Part shown: piece after piece, positions 17,180 to 47,550 of the stretch
Layout: every line of letters begins with the position of its first letter
Position numbering within the stretch: position 1 is the first letter of the stretch
Assembly (NCBI GenBank): GCA_023231475.1
Contig: JALJEE010002741.1
Coordinates: 1 to 64,000, forward strand
Source: Seison nebaliae
Lineage: Eukaryota
DNA: 64,000 bases
Direction: 5' to 3'
Made by a program: the position numbers and the translations under genes
The notes under the pieces: model-generated
Told to the model about the DNA's origin: nothing
Databases searched by the model: none
Seen by the model: only the letters and a program-made list of their open reading frames with translations

Positions 17180-18097
17180 TTAATCATCTTCTTTTGGTAA
17201 CATGTCACTATCTTCTCTAACATCAAAATTCTCTCCGTATTGAATACAATTATCGAGAAGTAATGTCAATTGTTCTATTGATTCCTCATCATTCATATGA
17301 ATTGAAGAGAATTTCACTAAAGAATAGTCGTATAATGTTCTCTCTAAAATCTTTGTCAACTTTCCAAATTTGTTTGTAAAAGTTAATGGAGACGTTGAGG
17401 AAGAAGTTTCATCATCATCATTATTTTTGAAATTCATATCAAAATTATCATCATGAATTCCATCTGATGCTACACTGTAACCATAATCTAACATTTCCGT
17501 TGTATTCTCGTCTAACATGTCTTCGATTTGATTTCGATGTTTTGATGATAATAAATCCATTTTAGAAACGACATTCAATTGTGGCATTTCGAGATGCATC
17601 ATCGTCGATAAACCGGCTAATGATGCTGCAATATACTTCGATCTCTCAACAAGAAAATGAGCATCGATCACATAAAGGACGACGAGATTGAAATGAAGTT
17701 GTCTGGTGAGATGAGAGATGATATTAATCATTTCTGGACAATCAGTATATAATTCTAATTGACCCGGACAATCAAATAAATAAAACGTATCATCATCAAT
17801 TGATTCCATATTAATGAAACTCTCAAGAAAGTCCACATTCTCCGACAGATATTTTATGGCAAAGATCAATGCACCATTCGGTCCCAATCTCAATTCTTCA
17901 TCTTCTGCTATATCATCAACACTAATAAGATTTCGTACATCTCCATCAACATTATAATCGAAATGTTCAGCGGCTGGATCAAGATTTATGCACGAATGTC
18001 TTCGACGTATCGTTGAGAAATGAGAAGAGAGAATTGTACATAATGTCGATTTCCCAGCACCTGCTGGACCAACAACGAGAGCTCCATATCGTGACAT
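17180..18097 (-). CDS. GPN3: GPN-loop GTPase 3
   Basis: GPAGAGKST P-loop, INLDPAAE, LGPNG loop, FDCPGQLELY and C-terminal IQYGE. Confidence 0.93.
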   Translation of the reverse strand: MSRYGALVVGPAGAGKSTLCTILSSHFSTIRRRHSCINLDPAAEHFDYNVDGDVRNLISVDDIAEDEELRLGPNGALIFAIKYLSENVDFLESFINMESIDDDTFYLFDCPGQLELYTDCPEMINIISHLTRQLHFNLVVLYVIDAHFLVERSKYIAASLAGLSTMMHLEMPQLNVVSKMDLLSSKHRNQIEDMLDENTTEMLDYGYSVASDGIHDDNFDMNFKNNDDDETSSSTSPLTFTNKFGKLTKILERTLYDYSLVKFSSIHMNDEESIEQLTLLLDNCIQYGENFDVREDSDMLPKEDD

Positions 18098-23081: not shown

Positions 23082-24538
23082 ATGCGAGAAATTGTTCACG
23101 TTCAAATAGGAAATTGTGGAAATCAAATAGGATCGAAATTTTGGGAAGTTATTTCGGATGAACACGGAATTGATCCGACAGGAACATATCATGGCGAATC
23201 CGATCTACAATTAGAGAGAGTTACAGTTTATTATAATGAAGCTATGAATGGACATTATGTTCCGAGAGCAGCATTAGTGGATTTAGATCCTTCAATGATT
23301 GAATCAATAATTGATACACCTTATGGTGGTTTATTTAAACCTGAAAATATTGTTACAGGTCATGTTGGTGCAGGAAATAATTGGGCGAAAGGACATTATT
23401 CACCTTTAGTTAATCCGGTAATGGATGTTATTAGAAAGGAAGCTGAAGCTACTGATGCAATGCAAGGCATTCAAATTACTCATTCGATTGGGGGAGGTAG
23501 TGGTGCAGGATTAGGAACAGGTTTAATTTAATAAGATTTTTAATAAAATTTATAATTTTAAATTAATATAAAGCATTAACTATGAGAATAGAAGAAGAAT
23601 TTCCAGATAAGATCGTTGAAACTGTTTCCGTTGTGCCATCACCTAAAGTATCAGATACTGTAGTCGAACCATATAACGCCACTTTAGCTTTCCATCATTT
23701 AGTCGAACATACTGATGAGACGTTTTGTATCGATAATGAAGCTTTATTTAATATTTGTATGAATACATTAAGAATTACAACACCAACATATATGGATCTT
23801 AATCATCTCGTATCTAGTGCCATGTCAGGAATAACAACATGTCTTCGATTTCCAGGTCAATTGAATGCTGATTTAAGGAAATTGGCAGTAAATATGGTTC
23901 CTTTTCCACGTCTACATTTTTTCATACCTGCTTTTGTCCCATTAACGAGTCGAAATAGTGTTCCTTATCAAGCCGTGTCTGTACATGAATTAGTTCATCA
24001 AATGTTTGAACCGGCTCATATGATGGCCGCTTGTAATCCAACAAACGGTCGATATTTATGTGTTGCATCTGTATTTCGTGGTCGAGTGAGTATGAAAGAA
24101 GTGGATGAATTAATGTCAAATGTTCAAATAAAAAATAGAAGTTCTTTCGTCGAATGGATTCCTAATAACGTGAAAACGGCCGTTTGTGACATCGCTCCTA
24201 GAGGACTGAAAATGTCAGCCACATTTATCGGAAATTCGACAGCAATTCAAGATTTGTTTCGACGGATTGCTGAACAATATTCAGCGATGTATCGTAGAAA
24301 AGCTTTCTTGCATTGGTATCTGAATGAAGGTATGGAAGAAGCGGAATTTATGGAAGCTGAATCCAATATGAATGATCTCATTTCCGAATATCAACAATAC
24401 GAAGAAAGTGATTTGAATGAAGATGAATTATATGATGAATTCGATGAATCACAAGATATACAGACTGAACATGAATCACCTGAACATGAAATTTATGAGA
24501 GAGCAGCATCAATTGGCACTCATCCAATAGAGGAATAG
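23082..24538 (+). CDS. TUBB: Divergent beta-tubulin; one 53-nt intron at 23521-23573
   Basis: MREIVH start, [53 protein letters not shown]. Splicing restores [12 protein letters not shown], collinear with canonical GTLLISKIREEY. Confidence 0.96.
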
Positions 24539-26750: not shown

Positions 26751-28356
26751 TTAAGTTAGTAAATCATTCGTCGTTTGATGATTTGTTGCCATTTGTTGTA
26801 GTGCTAATAAATTTAATTGTTGGTGTGTTTGTGGCTGCTGAAGTTTAATGGAAGATAAACTGTTTTGATCATTTATTGTCATTTGATTGTTTTGCAATTG
26901 TTGTTGATGTGTTTGATTTTGGTGATTTTGATGAGAATCGATTGGTGATGAATCTTGTTTATGTTCAATAAGTGACTGTGTTCGTTGATTAATAAGATAA
27001 TCTGAAATTTCATTTTGTTGTTGCATCTGTTGTTGGTGTAATTGGAGTAATCGAGCATAGTCTAATTTTTCGTTGGAGATATTATTATTTGAGACTAAGG
27101 AAATCGATTGCATATTATTTCCAACATTATTAGACGAAGATAAATTTTCATTAAAATTTAAATTTCCTATCAACTGATTTGTGGCAAGACAATCGTTATT
27201 CATCGTTTCATAAGAATAATTATTCTCATTACTTGACGATATCGGTTCCTTTTTCAATGATGTTGTTGTTGGATTCATATTACCGATCGTTTCATAATTA
27301 AAATTTGCTGCAACAGCTGCAGCAGCTGATAATGCATCAAATGATGTGAGATAATGTTGAGAATTCGATATACCGTTTGAAGTAATCATCGATTCTATTT
27401 AAATTAAAAATTTTATTATTCATAAAAAAAAATGTAACCTGTTGCTGCTGCAGCAATTGCTTGTTGATGATATAAGAGACCTTCGGTAAATTTCCTTCTT
27501 AACTTTTGTTCTTTCTTGTATTTCATTCGTCGATTTTGAAACCAGATTTTTATTTGTCTCTCCGACAAATTCAACATTGACGCCATTTCAATTCGACGTG
27601 GACGACAGAGATATCGATTGAAATGAAACTCTTTCTCCAATTCAACTAATTGGGAACTGGTATATGCAGTTCGGGCTCGTTTCGATGATGTACTGACACC
27701 AGAAAGTTCTGAATTATGTTCTTCCTTATCAGTTGAATCATGTTGAATATTTGATCTCTTTCTTTTCGTATCATTTACACAACCATTATTATTATTGTTA
27801 TTATTATCATTACTACTGTTTATTTCAGTTTGATTTGTATGATTATTATTATTGTTCGTTAAGGAATTATTGAGAAGTTTCTTTTGCTCATCGTTGTCGA
27901 AGAAATCATTATCTAATAAAATTCAGATAAAGATTAATTAGAAAAAGATTAAGATAATTAATATTTAATAAATTTTGGTTGATTCGTTTTAAATTATATT
28001 TTTATTGGATATATTTATTACATGTGTTCATGATTTTTTTCTTTTTCTTATCATATAATACGAATGGAGAAAAGAAGAAAAAGATACCGACTTGAAAAAG
28101 GTGAAGTTGATGTATCATCTGATTTTTTGGGTATGGCCAATGAGTTTGATAATGAGGAGCAACCGGAAGATGAAGATAACGGAGTTGGATTCTTCCATTC
28201 ATTCATATAACCATTTTCGTGATTACTTAACGGTTGTTGACGATGAAATGATTGTGTCTGCAATTGTTGAGGTAATTGCTGTGATAAATTGAAATATTTA
28301 TGGTTATTGTTATTGATAGGAGTGATAACGTTATTATTAAGAAAATTATCAGTCAT
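26751..28356 (-). CDS. Hox3: Hox3-class homeodomain transcription factor; three exons. Intron 27395-27438; first-intron acceptor near 27914, donor uncertain
   Basis: Homeodomain [60 protein letters not shown] has paralogue-group-3 residues (AYTSxQLVELE, YLCRPRR, MKYKK) and is followed by a long Q/N-rich C-terminus. Confidence 0.9.
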
Positions 28357-32994: not shown

Positions 32995-35085
32995 TTATTC
33001 CCATTCAGTTGTACCTGGCGGCTTATTAGTTAGATCGTAGAGGACATTGGAAATTCCGGGAACATTCTTCAATTTTTCGAAAATATTTTTGATTGTTTTG
33101 GCTGGAACGTGTACTCCAGGTTGTGCTGCGATTCCTGTCATGAAATCTTTGGTCACCAGTGGTCTAATGGCGACAGTACGACCGCCAATTAATTCTTCTG
33201 TTACTGGTTGCATGATATTAATTGGTAAGAGTACTACTGGCATTTGAGCAATATCTCCACATGATTTCCATCCATCTGCAAATAATTCTCCAGTAGCAAC
33301 TCGATCACATTCACGTGCTAAATTGATGATTTCTGGTTTGAGTGTTGTAGGTATAACATATTTGACAGACATTGCATCACTTCGACTTCCAAAGAGGAAT
33401 GTCACTCGATTAATTCGAGAACAAATTCTACAAATGATTTTGGCTAAATTCATCAATTCATACCAATCGATTTCTTCACGATTCTTATTATTATGAGATA
33501 AAACGGCCACATATGAATAAGTTCGTTCATCACCTTGTACTCCTACCGTTCGAATTGGTAATAATGTCGTCAAATAAATAGATTCGTTCGATTTCTCATC
33601 ATACAATTTGGAAAGAAAATCAATTTCACTTTCATTCAATTTCCCTACAAACTCCTCCACCAATTTCGGCCATTTAATTCGAAATTCCCAAAATTCTGCA
33701 ATCTTCCTCAATCTCTCACTCGTCTTAAAAAACACATCTTTCTCGATGAACGGTTGTTGTGCACATAAGATCCGAATAGCTAAACCAGGACCAGGAAATG
33801 GATGTCGATTCACCAGATCTAATGGAAGTTTCAACGATTTCCCCAATTCTCTCACTTCGTCTTTGTGCAAATTCTTCAATGGTTCAATGACTCGATTCTT
33901 TTTCCGTAATTCTCGCACTAATTGACTGTCATTGTGATGAGTTTTAATTTTAGATGTCTTCTCATTTGTGGTGGCTAAAATGGAAGCGGATTCAATGAGA
34001 TCCGGTCTCAATGTTCCTTGAGCGAGAATAATGTCGGACAACATCAAATTATTCTTTGCGAGATAATTGAAAATATATTGTATGAATACATCTCCAATAA
34101 TATTCCGTTTATGTTCCGGATCGATGGTGTTACACAACATCTCTGTTTCCATAGTAACATTATATCCATTCTCTGTTTCGAAGTTCTTATCGACGAATTT
34201 GGATTGTAAGAAGAAATTCATACATTTCAAATGATCGATCTTCTCACAGAAATCTAATTCTCTTAATGATTTCATGACAAGTTCACTTTCATTATGTCTC
34301 ATGAATCCATGATCGATATGCACAGCCATAATATTCTCTTTGCCCAATGCTTTACTTAAGATTGCGCACGTAACTGTCGAATCAACACCACCACTTAATA
34401 GTACTAAAACTTTCTTTGGTTTCGGTAGAATGGTTTGATATTCTTGTCGAATCTCTTCGCATAATCCATCAATATTTATCTTCTCATCGAAATCTGATGC
34501 ATTACAATGACAGATTGAAATGAGGAAATTATTAAAAATTTTATTTCCAACTGTCGTCAATTGACTTTCCGGATGGAATTGTAAACCATAATGAGGTAAA
34601 TGTAAATGTTTCATGGCGAGCACTTTCTCCATACTCCTCGTTGATACAACGTCGATTCTTTCAAATAATTTCTCATTAATCGATCTCACCGAATCGGAAT
34701 GAGTTAATAGAACGTCGATCTCTTTTGTTGGAATATTTTTAAATAATTCATTTTCATTATCGATCAATATTGAACGTTGTCCATCATCACGAGATAATTC
34801 GCTCGTTACTTCTCCTCCAGACATTTTCGCGAGAAGTTGATGTCCGAAACAAATTCCCAGAATTGGAATATTCTCTTCAAACAAACTTTTATCGACTTCA
34901 ATCTTGTCGTTCACAGAACCTGGCCCACCACTAATAACGATTCCACAATATTCTTTCAACTTTTCCAATTTGGTTTCTAACGGAAAAACATCATAATTGA
35001 CATGTTCTTCTCTTATTCGTCTTTCGATCATTCCACGATATTGTGCACCAGCATCCAAAATAGCGATTTTCCCATTCTTTTTCAT
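32995..35085 (-). CDS. GMPS: GMP synthase (glutamine-hydrolysing), intronless
   Basis: ILDAGAQY, PILGICFG, QFHPE, SGGVDS, QGTLRPDLIES, KIKTHHN, RHPFPGPGL and C-terminal KPPGTTEWE. Confidence 0.97.
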   Translation of the reverse strand: MKKNGKIAILDAGAQYRGMIERRIREEHVNYDVFPLETKLEKLKEYCGIVISGGPGSVNDKIEVDKSLFEENIPILGICFGHQLLAKMSGGEVTSELSRDDGQRSILIDNENELFKNIPTKEIDVLLTHSDSVRSINEKLFERIDVVSTRSMEKVLAMKHLHLPHYGLQFHPESQLTTVGNKIFNNFLISICHCNASDFDEKINIDGLCEEIRQEYQTILPKPKKVLVLLSGGVDSTVTCAILSKALGKENIMAVHIDHGFMRHNESELVMKSLRELDFCEKIDHLKCMNFFLQSKFVDKNFETENGYNVTMETEMLCNTIDPEHKRNIIGDVFIQYIFNYLAKNNLMLSDIILAQGTLRPDLIESASILATTNEKTSKIKTHHNDSQLVRELRKKNRVIEPLKNLHKDEVRELGKSLKLPLDLVNRHPFPGPGLAIRILCAQQPFIEKDVFFKTSERLRKIAEFWEFRIKWPKLVEEFVGKLNESEIDFLSKLYDEKSNESIYLTTLLPIRTVGVQGDERTYSYVAVLSHNNKNREEIDWYELMNLAKIICRICSRINRVTFLFGSRSDAMSVKYVIPTTLKPEIINLARECDRVATGELFADGWKSCGDIAQMPVVLLPINIMQPVTEELIGGRTVAIRPLVTKDFMTGIAAQPGVHVPAKTIKNIFEKLKNVPGISNVLYDLTNKPPGTTEWE

Positions 35086-35514: not shown

Positions 35515-37002
35515 ATGCACGTGCCGAACGATGTTGTCCGACAAAAGAGCGATGTACTTATTACCGAACATGGAGTTGAGGATGTTAATATTTTTATTGA
35601 ATTCAATTCATTATCAATCCATTCGATCAATTATAGACTCATTCGTCAAATATGCCGAATAATTTTGATCCATCGATAGACAAAGATCCGATAAATTTGG
35701 GGAAAGGATTTGACTTGTCTCGATTTAAAGAACAAATTACTATTAGCAGATTGAAAGAGTATGAAAGTGAAGATGGAAAAGAAATCCAATTCTTCTTGAA
35801 AGGATTAGAACCTGGATTTGTCAATGCTCTTCGTCGTATTATTCTTGTTGATGTTCACATCATTCATTTATCTGAATTCCATTGAAATTATTTTCATTTT
35901 TTAGTTGCCATCAATGGCAATCGATAAAGTTCTGATGTATCAGAATACTTCAGTATTGTCCGATGGAATATTATGTCATCGATTGGGATTAATTCCGTTT
36001 GAAGCGAATCCAGATGATTTCGAATTTAGATCTGATCCATCTTCCATCGGTTATTTTATTTCCATTTATATTTTAGGAAGTTATTCAAATTCCATTAAAA
36101 TTTATAGAATTAAAAGAGAATGAAGGAGTCAAATTCAAATTACAAGTGAAATGTTCATGGAAATTGAAGAAGGAAGACAGGAAAAATCTTTCAAATTCAA
36201 CTCCTGTCGATGATGCTTTCAAAGATTCCAATAGTTATAATTTCCATTCTTTCTCAATTTTAAAAACTCGTTTCCATTTTAGTTTATAGTTCACATTTTA
36301 AATGGGTGCCAATTGGGAAACAAAATGAAAAAGTTTAATTTTTTTTTCAAAAAAACATTTAAATTATTTTATTTTCAGTTCAAAGAAAAAGATGTCGGTC
36401 CGATCGATGGAGATATTCTTCTCAATAAATTAAGACCAGGACAAGTTTATTTTACAATTTAATTTATTAAGACACATTTCTCTTGAAGGAGATCGATTGT
36501 GAAGTTTTGGTTGTGAAAGGAATTGGGAAAGATCATGCGAAATTTTCTCCTGTAGGTTTCTTTCGAATTGCATTTGAAATTCTATAAAAATTCTTAACAA
36601 ATAGGAACCGTATATTATCGAATGTTGCCCGACATTAAATTATTACGTCCAATATTGAATGATGATGCTGAGACGGTGAAGAAATCATTTTCAAAAGGAG
36701 TTATCGGAATAAAAAAGAATATTCAGGGCGATAAAGAAGCTTTTGTTATAGATGCATCATTGGATAGATGTTCAAGAGAGATATTCAAAGATAAATCATT
36801 GTCAAATGCTGTCGAATATACGAGAAGAAGATATGAAGTAATATTCTCCATTGAATCTGTTGGACCGAAGAAATCAGCCGAATTATTCGTTGATTCATTA
36901 AATTTTCTGATAAACAAATGTAATAATATGTTGAATGTTATAAAGAAGAAGAAAGAATTCCGTTCTCATAAGAGCGATGTCATGCACGAAGATGATAAAT
37001 GA
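35515..37002 (+). CDS. POLR1C: RNA polymerase I/III subunit RPAC1 (AC40). Seven introns: 35584-35636, 35853-35904, 36050-36107, 36234-36282, 36333-36378, 36445-36488, 36556-36604. Start tentative
   Basis: NALRRIILVD|LPSMAI, HRLGLIP, KLRPGQ|EI, KGIGKDHAKFSPV|GT, YRMLPDI, FSIESVG. All junctions restore the conserved frame. Confidence 0.94.
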
Positions 37003-37071: not shown

Positions 37072-40000
37072 CATGTCTTCTTTAGGTGATCAATTGAAGA
37101 AGTTGGCATTGCCGCAAGTGGTGGAGAGATTCAATTTCGATAAATTGAGAAAATCTTTCTTATTCGACAAAGAGAAAATATCGAAATTTGATGGAAATGC
37201 ATTGTTGTCTATCGGTCGAAATGGTTTCGACGAATTGTTGGAAGTGAATAAGAAAGATTTTATTGAATTTGAAAATCTCTTCGAATCGAGTACACTCCGA
37301 ATGGAGAATAGATTGAAATTATCCAAGAAAGAAAATAAGAAATTAGATAAGAAATTGAATAAATTAATCATTGGATTGACGGATTATTTCCAAGAGAAAT
37401 ATACTCATCGAATTATTGAATGGTTAATTTATAAATTCTCAATTCATTATTTTAATGTTGATGCATTGATCACGATGTCTCTATCATATCATCAAACGAG
37501 TTTATTCATTCGATTAATTCAAGTCATTTTCCCAGTCGATACGAAACGTCAAATCGAACAGAAATCATTTGCATCTCTTGAATATCTCCAAAATTGGTTA
37601 TGGATGAATGATCTAATTGCTGATTCTCAAATAATTCATCGCTCATTAATCACGAAAGAATTAATAAATAATCGAATTTTCTTCGAACAATTCCTTCAAA
37701 ATTTCATTGGAAATATTCATCGATCACCAACAATTGCCAAATTTGTTTACGTGTCCATCGTTTCAATTATTGAAGAATTAAGAGGTATGACCACTGAGAA
37801 AACCGACTATAAAATGTTAACGGAATTAACTGTTCATCTGATGGAGAAATATGAGAATATGATGGAATCGGAACAAAACATTACCGATATCAAATCAATA
37901 ATTTATATGAATAATTTCTTACAATTAATTAATTTCCATAATAAGATTAAATATGGGAATATCTTTAAATTTTATCAAGAAATCATTCTACAAACGAACG
38001 AAATAGATAATCATATTATCGATTATTTATCAATGTTCTTTTTGAAAGCGAAATGGAAGATTGATAATGAATCATCATATTGTTGTTTCTTCCATTATTT
38101 AGAAGAAAATCGGAAGAAAAAGAAAACCTTCGAATCAATAAAAAATCTCTTAAATTGTTTAATGGAAAACTTTTCAAGCAATTTATTAGAAATGATTAAT
38201 GAAATTAAATTAGAAACACGAAAACCATTTTCATCATTTCTCATTCATTATTCTCTTCGTCATCTTTCATCAAATCATGAAGTAATTTCCAATATTATGA
38301 ACGATTGTATGCGATGGATGAAAGTGGACAAGAACATCTCAATTTTCATCGTCACTCTCATTGTTGAAAATTTAACTGATGATAATTTGAAAATAAAGAC
38401 AATTGAGAAATTACTTCATTTTGGTGAACAATCGTCATTGGAGTGTTCGGAATATTTTGATAAAACGATAATCATAGGAAAATATGATGGAAAGATTCGA
38501 AGAATGTTATTGAAAATGAAAAAATGTCTCAAATACGAAAATTTATCGGAAGAAAATGAATTGCCAATTTATCTAGCGATTAATCATCAATCCATTGCTA
38601 TTCGTCAAGAAGCAATAAGAAAAATATTGGAAACATTCGAAGAAGAAGAGGAATATGATTTGGAAGAGATTATTGATATTTTCAAAAAAAACAAGTCAAT
38701 TTTCCATCAAACCGTTTTACGGAAAAGTTTTGTGCAAAATATGAAATATTCATTTCTTCAAAAATTTCATGAGAAAGATCTAATTTTTCTTTTTAATCAA
38801 TTAATTATTTCTTGTGAGAATGACGAGAAGAATGTGTCTCAAAATGAAGTGAGTATCATCGAGAAATGGTTGGAGAAGTTGAAGGAGGAGAATCATGAAT
38901 TAAATGAAAGCGTTCTCAATTTCTTATTAATTCAATTTAATTGTTATGGAAATGATGATAAAATATATTCGGATGAGAATGTCAAACAAATGAAATTTGA
39001 AAATGATGAATTAAAAGAATTTATTAAAGGACCATTAATAATGATTGGTAAATCGGAAAGAATGATAAAAATCGTTCGAATAATTATTTCTGATAAAGAA
39101 TGGATGATCGATATATTCATCAACATGGTAGATAATGAAAAGATGGCAATGATAAATTTCTTGAGAGAAATATCGAAATTAATAGGGAAATTGATTGAAA
39201 TTGAAGAAACGGAAATATTGCCATTATGTACGATATTAACGAAGCAGATGGAGAAACATTTTATTTTCAGGGATTTATTGGAAGAAATTTTAACAAATTG
39301 TATAACGAATAAAATATACGAGAAATTTATTAAAGATTTTGTAATGAGTTCACTTGTCGTTTGTGAAGATATTATACCAGAATATTATTATTCCATACAA
39401 TTATCAATCATGGACATTCTAATAAATGTTGGTCCTTGGGATTGTGTGGAGAAAAATCGAATTTTGGATTATCTTTTCCTCCTCGGTGCAACGAAGAAGA
39501 CATCGAAGGAAATTTGTAGAAAGTTCTTATTGACAATCATCAAAGATTCTTCTGAAAATGAAGCATTACAATTAATGGTACGATCGATTCGGAAAGAATC
39601 AGAACCGGAGAAAGTAATGATGGATTATATGAATTTCATCCGGAAACATGACTCGGTGGATGATAAAGAAATTTTTAGAAAAATATTTCATATGTCCAAT
39701 AATAATATTCGATTATTCAAATTTTTCCTCCAATACATCCAACAATCGAAAAGTAAAGCGATAACTCATCTAATTTTCAAATATTGTGAAGGACAACTGG
39801 ATCGATTGGAAGATGGAGAGAATAATATCTTGAAATATTACGCAGAAGAAATTCGTAATAAATTGCGAATAATTTACTTATATTTGCATCATAATATTTT
39901 GAGAAATAAACATATTATTCGAAAATCTCAATTAGCGAGCAATTACATCAATAAATTAATAACAATTCATTATAATAATTCTTCAATCGTAAATAAATCG

Positions 40001-43000
40001 ATTAATGAAATCGATGATACATTTCAATCGAATAATTCGAATGATGTCAATCGATTATGTCGTTTGGATCTCTATTCACTCTTTGCTGATTCCCCCAAAT
40101 TAATTCTCTCAGTAAATGATGAGAATCAATTCCGTCTCATTTTATTACAAGCTGTCGATTATATACCAGGTGATACACATTTCAATACGAAGAAAATGAT
40201 GACTTTGACTCCGGAAAATTTAAAAAGAGTTTTTGAAAAATTCTTTATAACTTCCAAAATTCAATTGATCGAGAAAGTTCTTTATACGACAACTTTCACA
40301 TTAATTCATCAACATGAAAATTCGTCAGTTATCCAAAAAGAGAAAGATATATTCTTCTTATTGAACGATTATTTTCCATATTTATTGAAAATTTTTAAAA
40401 GGTTAAAATTTCTCTACAATTCCAATTTGTTTCAACTCTTTTCATGATGATATGGAAAAGATTAGCGATTTTTAATTTATGAAATTTTTTATTGACAGTT
40501 TTCTTATCAGCTGAATTTCATTTGAATTCTCTCAATTATTTTATGATTATGTTTAAGAACATTGATCTTATCTGATGAATTAATTAATTATTTAAATCTT
40601 GATTTTTATTTAACATTTTTTAATGAAATTTCTTTCAATTTCAGATCAATCGAATTGAAATTATCTCAACCAGCAATCAATTTAATTATCAGATCGATTG
40701 ATATTTATTCGAGAGCAATCTTCGATTTACATGTGCCAAATTCAGAAATGTTGATTAGGAATAAATTTGGAGAATTACTCGATGGATTGATGCAATTTTT
40801 AATCGACAAAAATTTCCAAAATTTACAATTGGAGAAATCCATCATCAATATCGTTACGACCATCACTGCCAACATTCCCAAAATTGGTATTCCGAGAATA
40901 ATGTCAATAACTGAATTGTTGAATGATTCTTTACAAACTAAAGAATTGGTTTATGGATCAGATCATTTAACATTAGATGATTTTATTGATAAAATAATTT
41001 CGTCGTTTCCAAATATTCCTGATGAAATTCAAAAAGAATTTATACAAATGTTGAATGTAAATTTAGTAAGTAAGATGTTATTGGGAGATGATACGAAAAT
41101 TGTGAATATTCTTTTCGATAAAATAGTTTTCCATATGAACAATCCCGATTTCTTCTTCCAGATACCTATCATGATTATTGTACAAATAACAAATACGGAA
41201 ACAAAATCTTTGAGTCAACGATTGATATCTCTCGATAATGCCACTAATCAATTTAGACAATTGATGTGCAATATATTAAGTGAATTCCCTTCAACGCGTA
41301 TTACAGATCGTATGAGAAATATATTGAATTCAATAACAAAATTTGGGAAATATTTTCAAACGAATTTCTTAAACAAAGAACACAAATTATCAGAAAAGAA
41401 AGATTTCGTGATTGATAGATCGTTCGCTAATATGAAATCGTTACAAATTGGAAAATCGAATTTCCGTTTTGCACAAGTTAACTTGTTGAAATATGTGAAG
41501 CGATTATTGATAAGTTTATTCGAGAATTTTTCGAAGGAATTCGAAGAGAATCGAATAATTAACAAAATTTTATTGGAGAATTGTATAACATTTTTTAATG
41601 TATATCTATCACATACTCTTCCTGAATCGTTAAATGAGGAATCTTTCCAACATTCTATGTCAAAACTTTTGTTGGACATTACAGATAAACTATCAAAGAA
41701 GTTGAATGAAGAAAATTTCATTGATTTCCTTAGGAATCATGTATTCTCTCCAATAAATCAGACGAAATTGAAAGTTATCGAATTTGGTTTATCTGCTATG
41801 ATGGGGCGAGAAATTGAGAAACATTTATTGGAAGAATTATTTCCTTCGTTAATATCAATTGTAACATTTTCAATTGAAAATGATGGAATAAAAGATGAGA
41901 ATTCATTAGATGTTAATTATAATACACAATTAATTAATGGAATTAGAGCAGCGAAAATTATTCGTTTCAATTTACAAAACATCGACTGGACAAAGTTTTT
42001 GAAGAAAAATTTCATTTCACAGACAACAAAATTGAAAGTAAGTGGAGAGAAAAGGAAAATTGATGAAGATTATGAAATAAGTCTAACTTATCTTCAATTG
42101 ATAATTTTGTCATTAAATCAAATTAATTTGACATTGATTGAATTTAATGAAATGAAAGAACTGAAAAAAAATTTTGAAGAATCATCTCAACTTTTGAGAA
42201 ATGGAACAAATATGAAAATTTTATTGAGGAAAATTGAGAATGATGAAGAGGAATCGATTCTTTTCGATTATTTCTTAGCACTCATCAGTTTATTGGATGA
42301 TCCTCAACAACGAACAACATTAGATTTGAATGTATCAATTAAATATTTAATTCAATCGATTTTCAATTTTCTATTAATTCTCATGCGGAAGAATGATAAG
42401 AAACGATTGGAAATGGGAAAAATGATTTTTGGAAAAATAATTGAAAACAATTTAATTTGTCTCACAACTTATATGAAAGAGTTAATAGAAATGATTATAG
42501 TTTTAGAATATTTCCATTTATTATCAAATCCTCCAAAAAATAGAGATGATGAGAAAGATGTAGATGGAAAATTGGAGAGATATTTCCACCAACAAAATCA
42601 TGTTCATGGATTAATGTCGGGAAATAATTTGGTTTTCAACGAACTGACAAAGAATGTTCCTGCACATTTATTATTACCAAATCTCCTTCAATATTTCAAA
42701 TTATTTATTAGTCGATTGAATGAAGATAATATGATATGTTCAATGATTATATTCGGAATTAATACATCCATCTATTTCAAACCGTTCGAAAATGATAATG
42801 GAATATTCAAAAATAATCAAATAAAAGACTCTTTCCAAATTTATGATATTTTAGTTAAACAACTCGAAGTGATTAGTGGAACGTTGTTAAATCAAAATGG
42901 AACATCAGAATTCTTATGTAATTCAACACTCAATTTATTGGAATTCAGTTCGGATAATTTTAAAATTATTCTCAAAAAATATTTGTTGTCACCTGTCGAA

Positions 43001-44106: not shown

Positions 44107-47100
44107 TTATTTGTTCATTGATGGGAGACGAGAAAGTAATTTGAAGAATGGATACATGTCTATGTTAGCGTCATGATGAATAATTTTTTCGATTTGTAAA
44201 GGATTTTGATTCGAGTCCTTCGTCGAATTGATCGATGTTGTATGAGATTGTAATTCCTTTCTTAATTCCTCATAGAAATGATGAAATTCTTCGTAGATAG
44301 ACCAATTTGCATAAGAAAATGTTTCGAGTTCTTGTTGAAATTGATCAGATCGTTCAAGAAGTTCTTCGAAACTGTCTAAAGTGAATAATTTGATTTCTTC
44401 AATTTGAAGAACATTTGAAATGACTCGATTGAATTTAGTTATTAATAGTAAGAGATTAGTGACATAAGTCTTAGCTTTTGGGAGGAAAAAGAAGAGAAGA
44501 TGCATCAAATTATGAAGGAAGCGCAAATGTTTCAAATGTAATTCATTTAAACTTTCCGTATGTTGATTTGTTGAATGTATTGTCTTTTCGAAAAACTTTT
44601 TAAGATTTTGAAGATGTCGAGTGAATTGTTCTTCTGCTACATCAACATAAATATAAGAAGTGAATGATGATAAGAATGATGATAAGAAATATCTGGTACA
44701 ATTAAGTTGATTGAAGAAATGTCTGATTCTCACACACAATTCCATCAATGGAATATTCTTTATAGTTTTATAATAATTTATAGTAATTTCTATTCGTTTT
44801 AAATATCGATTGAGTATCAACCAATTTCCACTCAAATCATTCTTACAACGATTAAGTAGAAAGAAGAAACGGAATATTCCATTATAGAATGAAAGAATCC
44901 GTTCATTAAACGTTAAATTTAATGGCCAAACTATTTTCGATTTGGATGACGAAATCTCCAACAAATTCCAAATGTCAATCACATAAATATGATATTTTTC
45001 ACCATTCTGTTCAATCACTTCGACATCCGTTGCAATATCAGTCAAATAATTAGTGAATTGACTCTCTAATAATGAATAAGATTTCTCCTGATTAAATTGT
45101 TTCAATCGACTCTTCTTCTCATCTCTCACATTCTTGTCTTCTGTTTCATCATCATTATTATTTAATATCATTGTTAATGGATTAGTTAACGTTAAATAGA
45201 AGTTCATATAAATCTTCTTATTATTAATGAATGAAAGATGTGAGAGTAATTCTTTATCCATTTTTTCATTGTAAAATTTCCAGATATTATTCGTCGATAA
45301 TACGTCGTGATGGAATAGAATTTGACGATTAAATAATTGTTGACAACTCCTCCCAATTAATTTCAATTGTTTCAAAAATGTTTGTAAGTTGAATTGATTG
45401 GAACCGATCTCGAAAATCGCGTCATTTGATCGATGAAGAATTATGGAGTATTCAGGAATTCGAATGGTATAATTCCGATTTAATAATTTCGATGCTGTTC
45501 GATTGAATCCGAAATGCCAAAGAGAATCGAATGAAACAAGATAGATTGAACGAATAACATTGAATGAGTGTTGAAGGAGAATCGTATTATTTAAGGAGAC
45601 AATTAACTTATCTTTAACAGTTTCATTCTCATTCAATTTTATTTGTTTCAGATGAACATAAAATTGGATATGACCGAAAAGAACTTTAAGAACTATCGAT
45701 GATAAGAATCGAATACGACTATCTAATACAGATAATAATTTATTTTGTAAATCGTCAATATCATCTACCATTTCTAATTCTTTCATATTTCTTTTATTTG
45801 TTTCATGTAAACTTTTCAAATTATCATCATAATCTAATATGGAATATAATAATGGTAATAATTCCACATCGAAATATGAATTACAATAATTCTCATCATC
45901 ATTAATCGAATCTTCATAATTATCAGCCATTCGACTAATCCAACAATATCGCTCTTCCGATATCTCATTTATGGATTTCTGTCGATTAAACTCCAACATA
46001 TTATGTGTCGTCAATTCTTCAAGAAATTGTTCTAACGTTTCATTGATAGAATGCAAAGTTTGATGAAGTATCTTTGTATATTTTTCAATTAACAAAAATT
46101 TTTCGGCAGCAGCAAATGGTAAGAATGGTGGAAATAATTCATAATTGATATAATAACTAAATTGTACCCAGAGACATGGCTTTAATAATTCTCTTTTGAA
46201 GAATTGTTGGAAATTGTTGTCTTCTCGATTCTCTAATTTGATTTGTTTCACCACTTTCTGTTGATCGACGGGATAAATGAAAAATTCATGGAACTGATTC
46301 ATAATCGATTCTTTCTCATTATTGAGAAGTAAATGGAATTTCGAATATAATAATTGAGATTTATTAATCCAAGTCAAACATTGATTAACAAAAACATTGA
46401 CACATTTGCTCGACACCTTTTTCAACCATCGTCCAACTAATTCATTTCCTCGACCATATCGATCCAAATGTTCATAAATCACATTGATGATTCGAGCAGA
46501 TATTTCAGTTAAATTTTGAAATTTCTCCACAAATAAACGAAGAACTTGAATTGATGTCGACGCATTCTTCTCACTTTTTAATGCTGTTGGCGATTGGAGA
46601 CAATCTGTCAAGAATTCTTCATCACAATTCACTTCACTTGAATAGTTTTGTAGACCAGACAACATTTCCTCAATCTCACTGCAAACTTTATAAATGACAA
46701 TCAATGGACGATGATAAATATTCAATTTACTTACTAAAGAATTCAAAGTGAATGTTTCTGCACTCTCTTTCTCATTCTGATTAAATGTTAATTTTAAGAA
46801 ATCGTCTTCATCGATATCACTCTCGATCTCTTCCTCCAAATCATTTGATGATAATTGACTATCGGAAATATTAATATATTGTTTCTCATTAATTCTTTCT
46901 TCATTATCGTTTTCATCAAAAATTATATTTAAAGATTCATTAACATAGTTGAAATCAGTTAAGTTATTGTCAATATCATTCTCATTTCTGATTTCTTTAT
47001 TTTCATTCTTTAAATTAATAAATCTTTCATCAATTCGATGGAGATCATTGGATATAATTTCTGATTCTTTCTCTTTCATTGTCCTTAGATTTAATCGTCG

Positions 47101-47550
47101 ATTGATAATTAAATGTCGTTCGATCATTTTATCAATTTCAATCAGTTTCTTATCGAACTCTTCATGTAAACATTCGTCGATTCCTTCACATAATGATTGA
47201 AGGTAAATGAGAGAACTTGATGAATTCAACAAATTAAAAACTGAATCTACTGAATCCAAATGACGACGCTCTTCTTCTGGATCCATCATCTCCACTTGTG
47301 GCAACGTTTCACACAAATGTCTCAATGGTAAATATCGATATCGCTTCACGAATCCATTCAAATACCATCGATATGACGCGATGTTTGTGAAGATATATTC
47401 GATCAATTCACTTTCTTGTTTAGTACAAATCTTCTCATTCCCTTTTAATAAGTTGGAGAATCGATCCAATTTTCCCAATTTATTTCGATTTTTTTCATCA
47501 AATTCATCATTTGTCAAAATTTTCAATATTATCTCCCGAATTAGCAACAT
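44107..47550 (-). CDS. TUBGCP4: Gamma-tubulin complex component, GCP4-like (Spc97/98 family), intronless ORF; start uncertain (ORF is open to 47589)
   Basis: VWPLNLTFNERILSFYNGIFRFFFLLNR, YIYVDVAEEQF, and N-terminal MLLIREIIL resembling GCP4 MIHELLL. Confidence 0.65.
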   Translation of the reverse strand: MLLIREIILKILTNDEFDEKNRNKLGKLDRFSNLLKGNEKICTKQESELIEYIFTNIASYRWYLNGFVKRYRYLPLRHLCETLPQVEMMDPEEERRHLDSVDSVFNLLNSSSSLIYLQSLCEGIDECLHEEFDKKLIEIDKMIERHLIINRRLNLRTMKEKESEIISNDLHRIDERFINLKNENKEIRNENDIDNNLTDFNYVNESLNIIFDENDNEERINEKQYINISDSQLSSNDLEEEIESDIDEDDFLKLTFNQNEKESAETFTLNSLVSKLNIYHRPLIVIYKVCSEIEEMLSGLQNYSSEVNCDEEFLTDCLQSPTALKSEKNASTSIQVLRLFVEKFQNLTEISARIINVIYEHLDRYGRGNELVGRWLKKVSSKCVNVFVNQCLTWINKSQLLYSKFHLLLNNEKESIMNQFHEFFIYPVDQQKVVKQIKLENREDNNFQQFFKRELLKPCLWVQFSYYINYELFPPFLPFAAAEKFLLIEKYTKILHQTLHSINETLEQFLEELTTHNMLEFNRQKSINEISEERYCWISRMADNYEDSINDDENYCNSYFDVELLPLLYSILDYDDNLKSLHETNKRNMKELEMVDDIDDLQNKLLSVLDSRIRFLSSIVLKVLFGHIQFYVHLKQIKLNENETVKDKLIVSLNNTILLQHSFNVIRSIYLVSFDSLWHFGFNRTASKLLNRNYTIRIPEYSIILHRSNDAIFEIGSNQFNLQTFLKQLKLIGRSCQQLFNRQILFHHDVLSTNNIWKFYNEKMDKELLSHLSFINNKKIYMNFYLTLTNPLTMILNNNDDETEDKNVRDEKKSRLKQFNQEKSYSLLESQFTNYLTDIATDVEVIEQNGEKYHIYVIDIWNLLEISSSKSKIVWPLNLTFNERILSFYNGIFRFFFLLNRCKNDLSGNWLILNRYLKRIEITINYYKTIKNIPLMELCVRIRHFFNQLNCTRYFLSSFLSSFTSYIYVDVAEEQFTRHLQNLKKFFEKTIHSTNQHTESLNELHLKHLRFLHNLMHLLFFFLPKAKTYVTNLLLLITKFNRVISNVLQIEEIKLFTLDSFEELLERSDQFQQELETFSYANWSIYEEFHHFYEELRKELQSHTTSINSTKDSNQNPLQIEKIIHHDANIDMYPFFKLLSRLPSMNK

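Follow-up and report, generated by a model that had tools for sequence, protein, structure and literature searches.

Most of the short introns predicted in the window, by which we mean the whole 64-kb stretch of DNA that was analysed, share a donor motif, A-n/GTT(A/T)A-n-n-TT (slash, exon-intron boundary), which from the sequence appears to replace the usual GTAAG. It is illustrated by POLR1C, an ordinary housekeeping gene in which all seven introns begin with GTT (Table 1). Based upon the donors of this gene and of its neighbours, we propose that the host's splicing machinery has likely altered its specificity and now recognises another intron start, while at least some of the introns have kept old positions.

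Excision of seven GT-AG segments between nucleotides 35584 and 36604 gives a single open frame of 378 amino acids, which can be aligned over its full length to RPAC1 proteins and scores 391.6 bits on an RPAC1 profile built from 48 of 150 homologues. In the PDB, the last exon matched RPAC1 chains alone (7a6h_C, E-value 4e-17), and it shows 27-47% identity to its 150 best matches; single-exon word-index searches with POLR1C returned no match. The predicted product qualifies as an orthologue of POLR1C/RPAC1 (AC40, a subunit shared by Pol I and Pol III). The introns are 44-58 nt long, end in AG and have no length that is a multiple of three; frame and homology argue for their removal as ordinary GT-AG introns, at the junctions ED/TH, VD/LP, SI/EL, SN/IY, EK/FK, GQ/EI and PV/GT. 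Contigs from two sequencing runs, belonging to two studies, show zero base differences across the gene, and either may be the source of the window. Both are DNA runs; one of them was examined for spliced joints and showed none. At position 54918, contigs from both runs carry four extra bases relative to the window.

Table 1. Coordinates of POLR1C, its introns and the other introns and sites discussed (slash, junction or boundary)
Feature	Position	Strand	Description
POLR1C/RPAC1 gene	35515-37002	+	8 coding exons, 378 aa, ATG 35515, stop 37002
POLR1C exons	35515-35583, 35637-35852, 35905-36049, 36108-36233, 36283-36332, 36379-36444, 36489-36555, 36605-37002	+	
Intron 1	35584-35636	+	53 nt, phase 0, GTTAAT..TAG, after coding base 69
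Intron 2	35853-35904	+	52 nt, phase 0, GTTCAC..TAG, VD/LPSM
Intron 3	36050-36107	+	58 nt, phase 1, GTTATT..TAG, two similar halves
Intron 4	36234-36282	+	49 nt, phase 1, GTTATA..TAG, aligns with implied human boundary K167/V168 (c.502)
Intron 5	36333-36378	+	46 nt, phase 0, GTTTAA..CAG
Intron 6	36445-36488	+	44 nt, phase 0, GTTTAT..AAG, RPGQ/EI, tandem AAG/GAG acceptor
Intron 7	36556-36604	+	49 nt, phase 1, GTTTCT..TAG, FSPV/G
Out-of-frame standard-type site GTAGGT (CCT/GTAGGT)	36552-36557	+	4 nt upstream of donor 7
Beta-tubulin intron	23521-23573	+	GTTTAA..AAG, fixed by Pfam contiguity (profile 1-128, then 133 onwards)
EFHB-like gene intron	56212-56166	-	GTTAAA; out-of-frame GTGAGA (CGG/GTGAGA) 8 nt upstream at 56220
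35 high-confidence introns	1508-56841		40-60 nt, median 49, 81% A+T

To place the junctions, every GT or GC and every AG up to 40 nt from each of them was enumerated. All 23 in-frame alternatives fell below the model on the profile, by 2.9 to 68 bits; the 16 that move a donor lost at least 6.9 bits each, the best with a non-GTT donor lost 7.8 bits, and for introns 4 and 7 this range holds no other in-frame solution. A spliced aligner guided by homology, which favoured no donor beyond requiring GT/GC, chose six of the seven donors identically, intron 1 lying outside its local alignment, and set the acceptor of intron 3 9 nt later. Frame, profile and aligner thus confirm the seven consecutive GTT introns, with the donors and lengths that a preliminary description of this DNA had listed. 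Its claim that protein sequence fixes the junctions stands; junctions 3 and 5, however, fall in variable stretches of the protein and are therefore fixed by frame, not by conserved residues. Its label of "micro-introns" exaggerates, since such lengths are ordinary for compact animals, the orthonectid median being 57 nt according to the accessible text of PMC6543705.

Intron 3 is a tandem duplicate, consisting of two halves of 27 and 28 nt (36050-36076 and 36080-36107), each GTTATT..TAG, on either side of a GAA; none of 5000 shuffles reached its score. Splicing the two halves out separately would leave the frame intact with one additional codon, but each half is below the 40-nt minimum of the high-confidence introns. 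Compared by eye, the seven introns have no evident mutual similarity beyond their ends, and this dissimilarity, together with three positions common to other eukaryotes, led us to reject a recent gain of introner type. A long open reading frame (37073-40447, plus strand) starts 70 nt past the POLR1C stop; it had no Pfam match, and we take its N-terminus to resemble HEATR1/UTP10.

Introns elsewhere in the window were predicted with a gene finder that has no donor preference beyond GT. Its first run, for which acceptor and composition were seeded on POLR1C and the tubulin gene, called 49 introns (41 GTT, 7 GTA and 1 GTG); for the second it was retrained with POLR1C excluded. From 49 short candidates with flanking exons of at least 45 nt, we kept the 34 that were found in both runs and required by frame. 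POLR1C intron 1, which was among the 15 dropped (9 GTT, 3 GTA, 2 GTC and 1 GTG), was restored on homology, giving 35 high-confidence introns from one 64-kb window, eight of them fixed by homology (seven in POLR1C, one in tubulin) and the other 27 ab initio. The tubulin in question is a divergent beta-type protein (23082-24538, plus strand) with its single intron just past the GGGSG loop. When standard donors were implanted, the finder recovered 29-33 of 35 introns (GTAAG 31, GTGAG 29) against 34 unaltered, which indicates that GTA and GTG donors are not overlooked by it. Counting GTN trinucleotides ahead of acceptor-like hexamers, independently of any gene model, gave no peak and was too noisy.

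Outside POLR1C, GTT begins 24 of 28 high-confidence introns, and 17 of the 18 with a unique in-frame donor. Seven GTT donors in seven would arise with a probability of 0.002 from the GT background of the window or 0.007 from the T content of introns, as against 0.34 at the host's own donor rate, and the GTT share of POLR1C does not differ from that of the remaining introns (Fisher p 0.56). Since GTT is dominant outside POLR1C as well, the run of seven is expected and not specific to this gene. POLR1C, proposed earlier as the test case, is indeed a good test gene and the best-anchored example, but the GTT run is shared with the rest of the window.

Intron interiors (T 0.50, A 0.33, C 0.11, G 0.06) served as the background for scoring the motif. 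Position +3 is T in 31 of 35 donors (p 1e-6) and A in only 3, a depletion (p 7e-4); +4 is split between A (21) and T (12); +5 is A in 24 (p 2e-5), C in 5, T in 5 and G in 1, so that T is depleted here (p 1e-5). Positions +6 (T 14/35, G 1/35) and +7 (A 13/35) are unbiased, and these are followed by T at +8 (28/35, p 2e-4) and a pyrimidine at +9 (30/35, p 0.001; T in 26). On the exon side, A is enriched at -2 (23/35, p 4e-4) and G occupies -1 in 10 of 35. The motif is loose, with 19 different donor hexamers among 34 introns, the commonest start being GTTAA (13/34). Acceptors are T-rich and ordinary (TAG 16, CAG 11, AAG 6 and GAG 1 among 34). The branch-point sequence YTRAY was present in 16 of 35 introns, as compared with 17.4 in shuffles, and is not enriched; weak branch points are common in animals. 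An apparent avoidance of GTTAA in exons (z -3.6) was rejected, since it vanished (z 0.0) once the null preserved the nucleotide following every codon.

It is highly improbable that AT-rich composition and gene prediction have between them produced this motif: the junctions were predicted from DNA, the first finder run was seeded on POLR1C introns, intron interiors are half T and 18 of 30 GTs within them are GTT, but the second run was trained without POLR1C, the implant controls pass, all eight homology-fixed introns begin with GTT, positions +3 to +9 hold 2.2 bits of information against a null mean of 0.45 and maximum of 1.0 (2000 draws), and the enrichment at +4 and +5 is for A, not T.

U12-type introns have an invariant RTATCC-type donor as their consensus, and were rejected because none of the 35 donors is of this type. 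Animal donors otherwise fall into two classes, NN/GURAG and AG/GU (PMC11732430). The introns described here resemble these in their GT-AG ends, the A/U split at +4 and, in part, the A at -2; unlike them, 29 of the 35 donors lie outside both classes, which have just 1 and 5 members here (six in all, and one of the seven in POLR1C). On a U2-type reading, the introns would therefore be regular in their GT-AG ends and in restoring the frame, and irregular in lacking a GURAG-like donor or an AG/GU exon end. For comparison, 80 POLR1C loci of other eukaryotes were taken from metagenomes, and the 53 judged likely genomic were examined with the homology-guided aligner. These 53 gave 19 frame-required introns, and after two with GC starts had been dropped, one of the 17 GT introns began with GTT and 11 carried +5G, a small sample from GC-richer loci that are not independent (10 of the 17 at one position).

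Several POLR1C introns appear to be old. In the human gene, the variants c.69+1G>A and c.70-1G>A show that the first intron follows coding base 69 (PMC8002209), which is the position of intron 1 here, with a proline at residue 30 in both proteins. The human variant c.502G>A is labelled Val168Met plus a splicing error (PMC8002209), and this label implies a phase-1 boundary K167/V168, with which intron 4 would align. In one of the metagenomic loci (L024:666-851) the sole POLR1C intron of the aligned region is in phase 1 at FSPV/A, the position of intron 7; its donor, GTTAGT, has T at +3 yet retains G at +5. Human boundaries matching introns 2 and 3 presumably exist also. They are not given in the accessible part of PMC7577547. 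Six of the seven positions were absent from the 80 metagenomic loci, which are biased towards intron-poor genes, so this is no sign of novelty. Introns 1, 4 and 7, then, stand at positions common to other eukaryotes, which points to at least three old introns whose donors were rewritten in place.

How these donors are recognised was investigated by predicting their pairing with U1, using decoys built from the same introns. The seven POLR1C donors form predicted duplexes of only +0.7 to -4.0 kcal/mol with standard U1, where a perfect site gives -14. The earlier view that these sites offer GU and little else is borne out by this weak pairing, but not by the distinct motif that extends from +3 to +9. 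In the normal register standard U1 is no better on the donors than on the decoys (z 1.3-1.6), whereas a hypothetical arm with two changes, opposite +3 and +5, reaches a z of 6.6, a score inflated by the arm having been fitted to these same donors. The required donor was the sole best among nearby GTs in 10 of 26 cases with standard U1 and in 20 of 26 with the two-change arm, a figure inflated in the same way. Next to donor 7, the site at 36552 pairs better with standard U1 (-5.1 vs -4.0) and next to the EFHB-like donor the site at 56220 does so too (-10.4 vs -1.6); use of either would break the frame. All U1 arms tested pair weakly with the donors. No snRNA genes were located within the 64-kb window. 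A U1-like pattern gave two matches in viral contigs, which were rejected as not being U1. Clustered eukaryotic snRNA, 5S and tRNA genes occur on two contigs filed as bacterial MAGs (L009:1-2453 and L010:1-2553), the former with an SRP RNA as well; these are most likely eukaryotic contamination of the bacterial bins.

The reading that we tentatively prefer, as one approaching an even prospect, is that a U1 arm which has co-evolved with the donors, as in Entamoeba, reads these short AU-rich introns. The old introns would have kept their positions while their donors became GTT(A/T)A; the spliceosome would span the short (40-60 nt), AT-rich intron in order to find it; and the pairing arm of U1 would be approximately AUUAAC instead of ACUUAC, the two changes lying opposite +3 and +5, perhaps accompanied by a matching change in the ACAGA box of U6. 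In its widest form the proposal is that a bilaterian changed its major 5' splice-site code to GUU(A/U)A throughout the genome, leaving intron positions as they were, compensating in the U1 arm and possibly the U6 ACAGA box, and losing the +5G-C pair on which the spliceosomes of other animals depend; this is a possibility that we rate below evens. Since +3A and +5T are both below background, a reader with changed specificity is suggested rather than simple decay. The A/U split at +4 is normal-register behaviour in other species (PMC11732430), and we would count it, with the Entamoeba precedent, in favour of a co-evolved U1 in the normal register. Against this, the unaltered portion of U1 should favour +6T and +7A, neither of which is enriched, and the T at +9 falls beyond the normal register. 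Even the two-change U1 is weak, at a mean of -3.1 kcal/mol; proteins and contacts across the intron would therefore have to share the load.

Placed after it is the rather unlikely alternative that the snRNAs are standard and U1 pairing is nearly dispensable, the donor being set by intron definition, proteins of the TIA-1/U1C/LUC7 type on U-rich tracts, U5 loop 1 (-2A) and U6 (+3U wobble, +8U, +9Y). The weak pairing of every U1 arm and the enrichment of -2A, +8T and +9 pyrimidine are what it would predict. It has precedents as well: in the accessible text of PMC13644364, myxozoans and a dicyemid have a 5' signal reduced to "GTa", with conventional U2 and U2AF in myxozoans, and the available portion of bioRxiv 10.1101/2022.06.08.495308 indicates that most lineages with atypical donors, such as yeasts, Giardia, Trichomonas, Micromonas and Thecamonas, keep a standard U1 without compensation, which also counts against a co-evolved arm, and that the U6 ACAGA can pair with +2 to +6 of GUUUGU. 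Relaxed selection alone, however, predicts leftover +3A or background and not the depletion of +3A and +5T; standard U6 has no partner for +5A; and strong standard sites nearby, such as that at 56220, should compete.

Less probable again, and doubtful in our view, is that standard U1 pairs one base deeper (a +1 shifted or bulge +2/+3 register), so that GUUAA is read as GUAA with an extra U. These registers account for +3U, +4A, +5A and +9U, and for GTTAA as the commonest start; counted in matches, they exceed the decoys with z 5.4 and 3.4 for the common U1 end and 8.5 and 6.4 for a U1 starting AAAC, another point against a changed arm. Shifted registers are proven in human cells, at some 1.5% of sites, in the part of PMC4856993 that is accessible. 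The same text reports no melting transition for a shifted site lacking +6G, and the +6G that this register needs occurs in 1 of 35 donors; nor is the mean predicted duplex energy with standard U1 any better than that of the decoys (-1.7 vs -2.4; -2.7 vs -2.6). We favour the co-evolved U1 arm over standard snRNAs with protein- or U6-led choice, and these over the shifted register.

Among known systems, Entamoeba has GUUUGU(U) donors and a co-evolved U1 arm, ACAAAC (bioRxiv 10.1101/2022.06.08.495308, accessible text). As judged from that text, the window shares with it a majority of +3U (31/35, one window), AT-rich introns and a poor fit to standard U1, but Entamoeba keeps +5G, with 88-90% GUUUGU, while here we find +5A, a loose motif and a predicted bilaterian host, and its arm is known whereas the one proposed here is deduced from the donors. 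Myxozoans and Dicyema japonicum, to go by what is available of PMC13644364, are likewise compact animal genomes with short introns in old positions and loss of +5G; in contrast, they keep +3A and lose information, where here +3 is T and the motif would be replaced rather than erased, and introns of myxobolids and Dicyema are 20-30 nt as against 40-60 nt. Human +1 shifted and bulge +2/+3 sites also start with GUUAA (PMC4856993, in part, and Roca and Krainer 2009 as cited there), but they are a rare, validated and +6G-stabilised class, whereas the donors here form a majority without +6G. We found no description of a majority of GTT(A/T)A donors in an animal in the running text of the openly searchable literature, and no such donor data in the accessible text of PMC8351084, PMC6543705 and PMC11347168. 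The pattern could already be visible in the splice logos that PMC13644364 gives for 51 animals and PMC11347168 for 263 species, in figures or supplements. What is new here would be the majority of GTT(A/T)A donors in an animal, +3U being known from Entamoeba and loss of +5G from myxozoans and the dicyemid.

The window is gene-dense, with 26-34% GC per 2 kb, and encodes cadherin, CUB, astacin, rhodopsin-family receptor, homeodomain, tubulin and GMP synthase domains. This metazoan-type set indicates an animal host, and the homeodomain, which from its translation we take to be Hox3-like, points to a bilaterian. It belongs to a homeobox gene (26751-27922, minus strand) with an intron at 27438-27395 that likewise starts with GTT; no second homeodomain was found among the 21 long open reading frames scanned in the window. 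The GMP synthase shows 40-46% identity to that of many animals and reaches at most 46% with any of the 119 other homologues listed, none of which is a close relative. Sequence comparison thus suggests a fast-evolving, long-branch bilaterian. No introns were predicted in the genes for GMP synthase (32995-35085), a gamma-tubulin complex component (44107-47550), a GPN-type ATPase (17180-18097) and a GPCR (57936-59804), all on the minus strand. With seven retained in POLR1C, intron loss looks very uneven among the genes of the window.

Few elements of the animal splicing code are as stable as the purine at +3 and the G at +5. An animal in which both have been swapped at old intron positions would be a natural experiment on how introns and spliceosome change together, and POLR1C intron 7 and the EFHB-like intron would serve as built-in tests, owing to the standard-type sites 4 and 8 nt from their required donors. 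Gene prediction in this genome by programs trained on other animals will yield wrong gene models. The interest lies in what may be a genome-wide donor signal, POLR1C itself being unexceptional.
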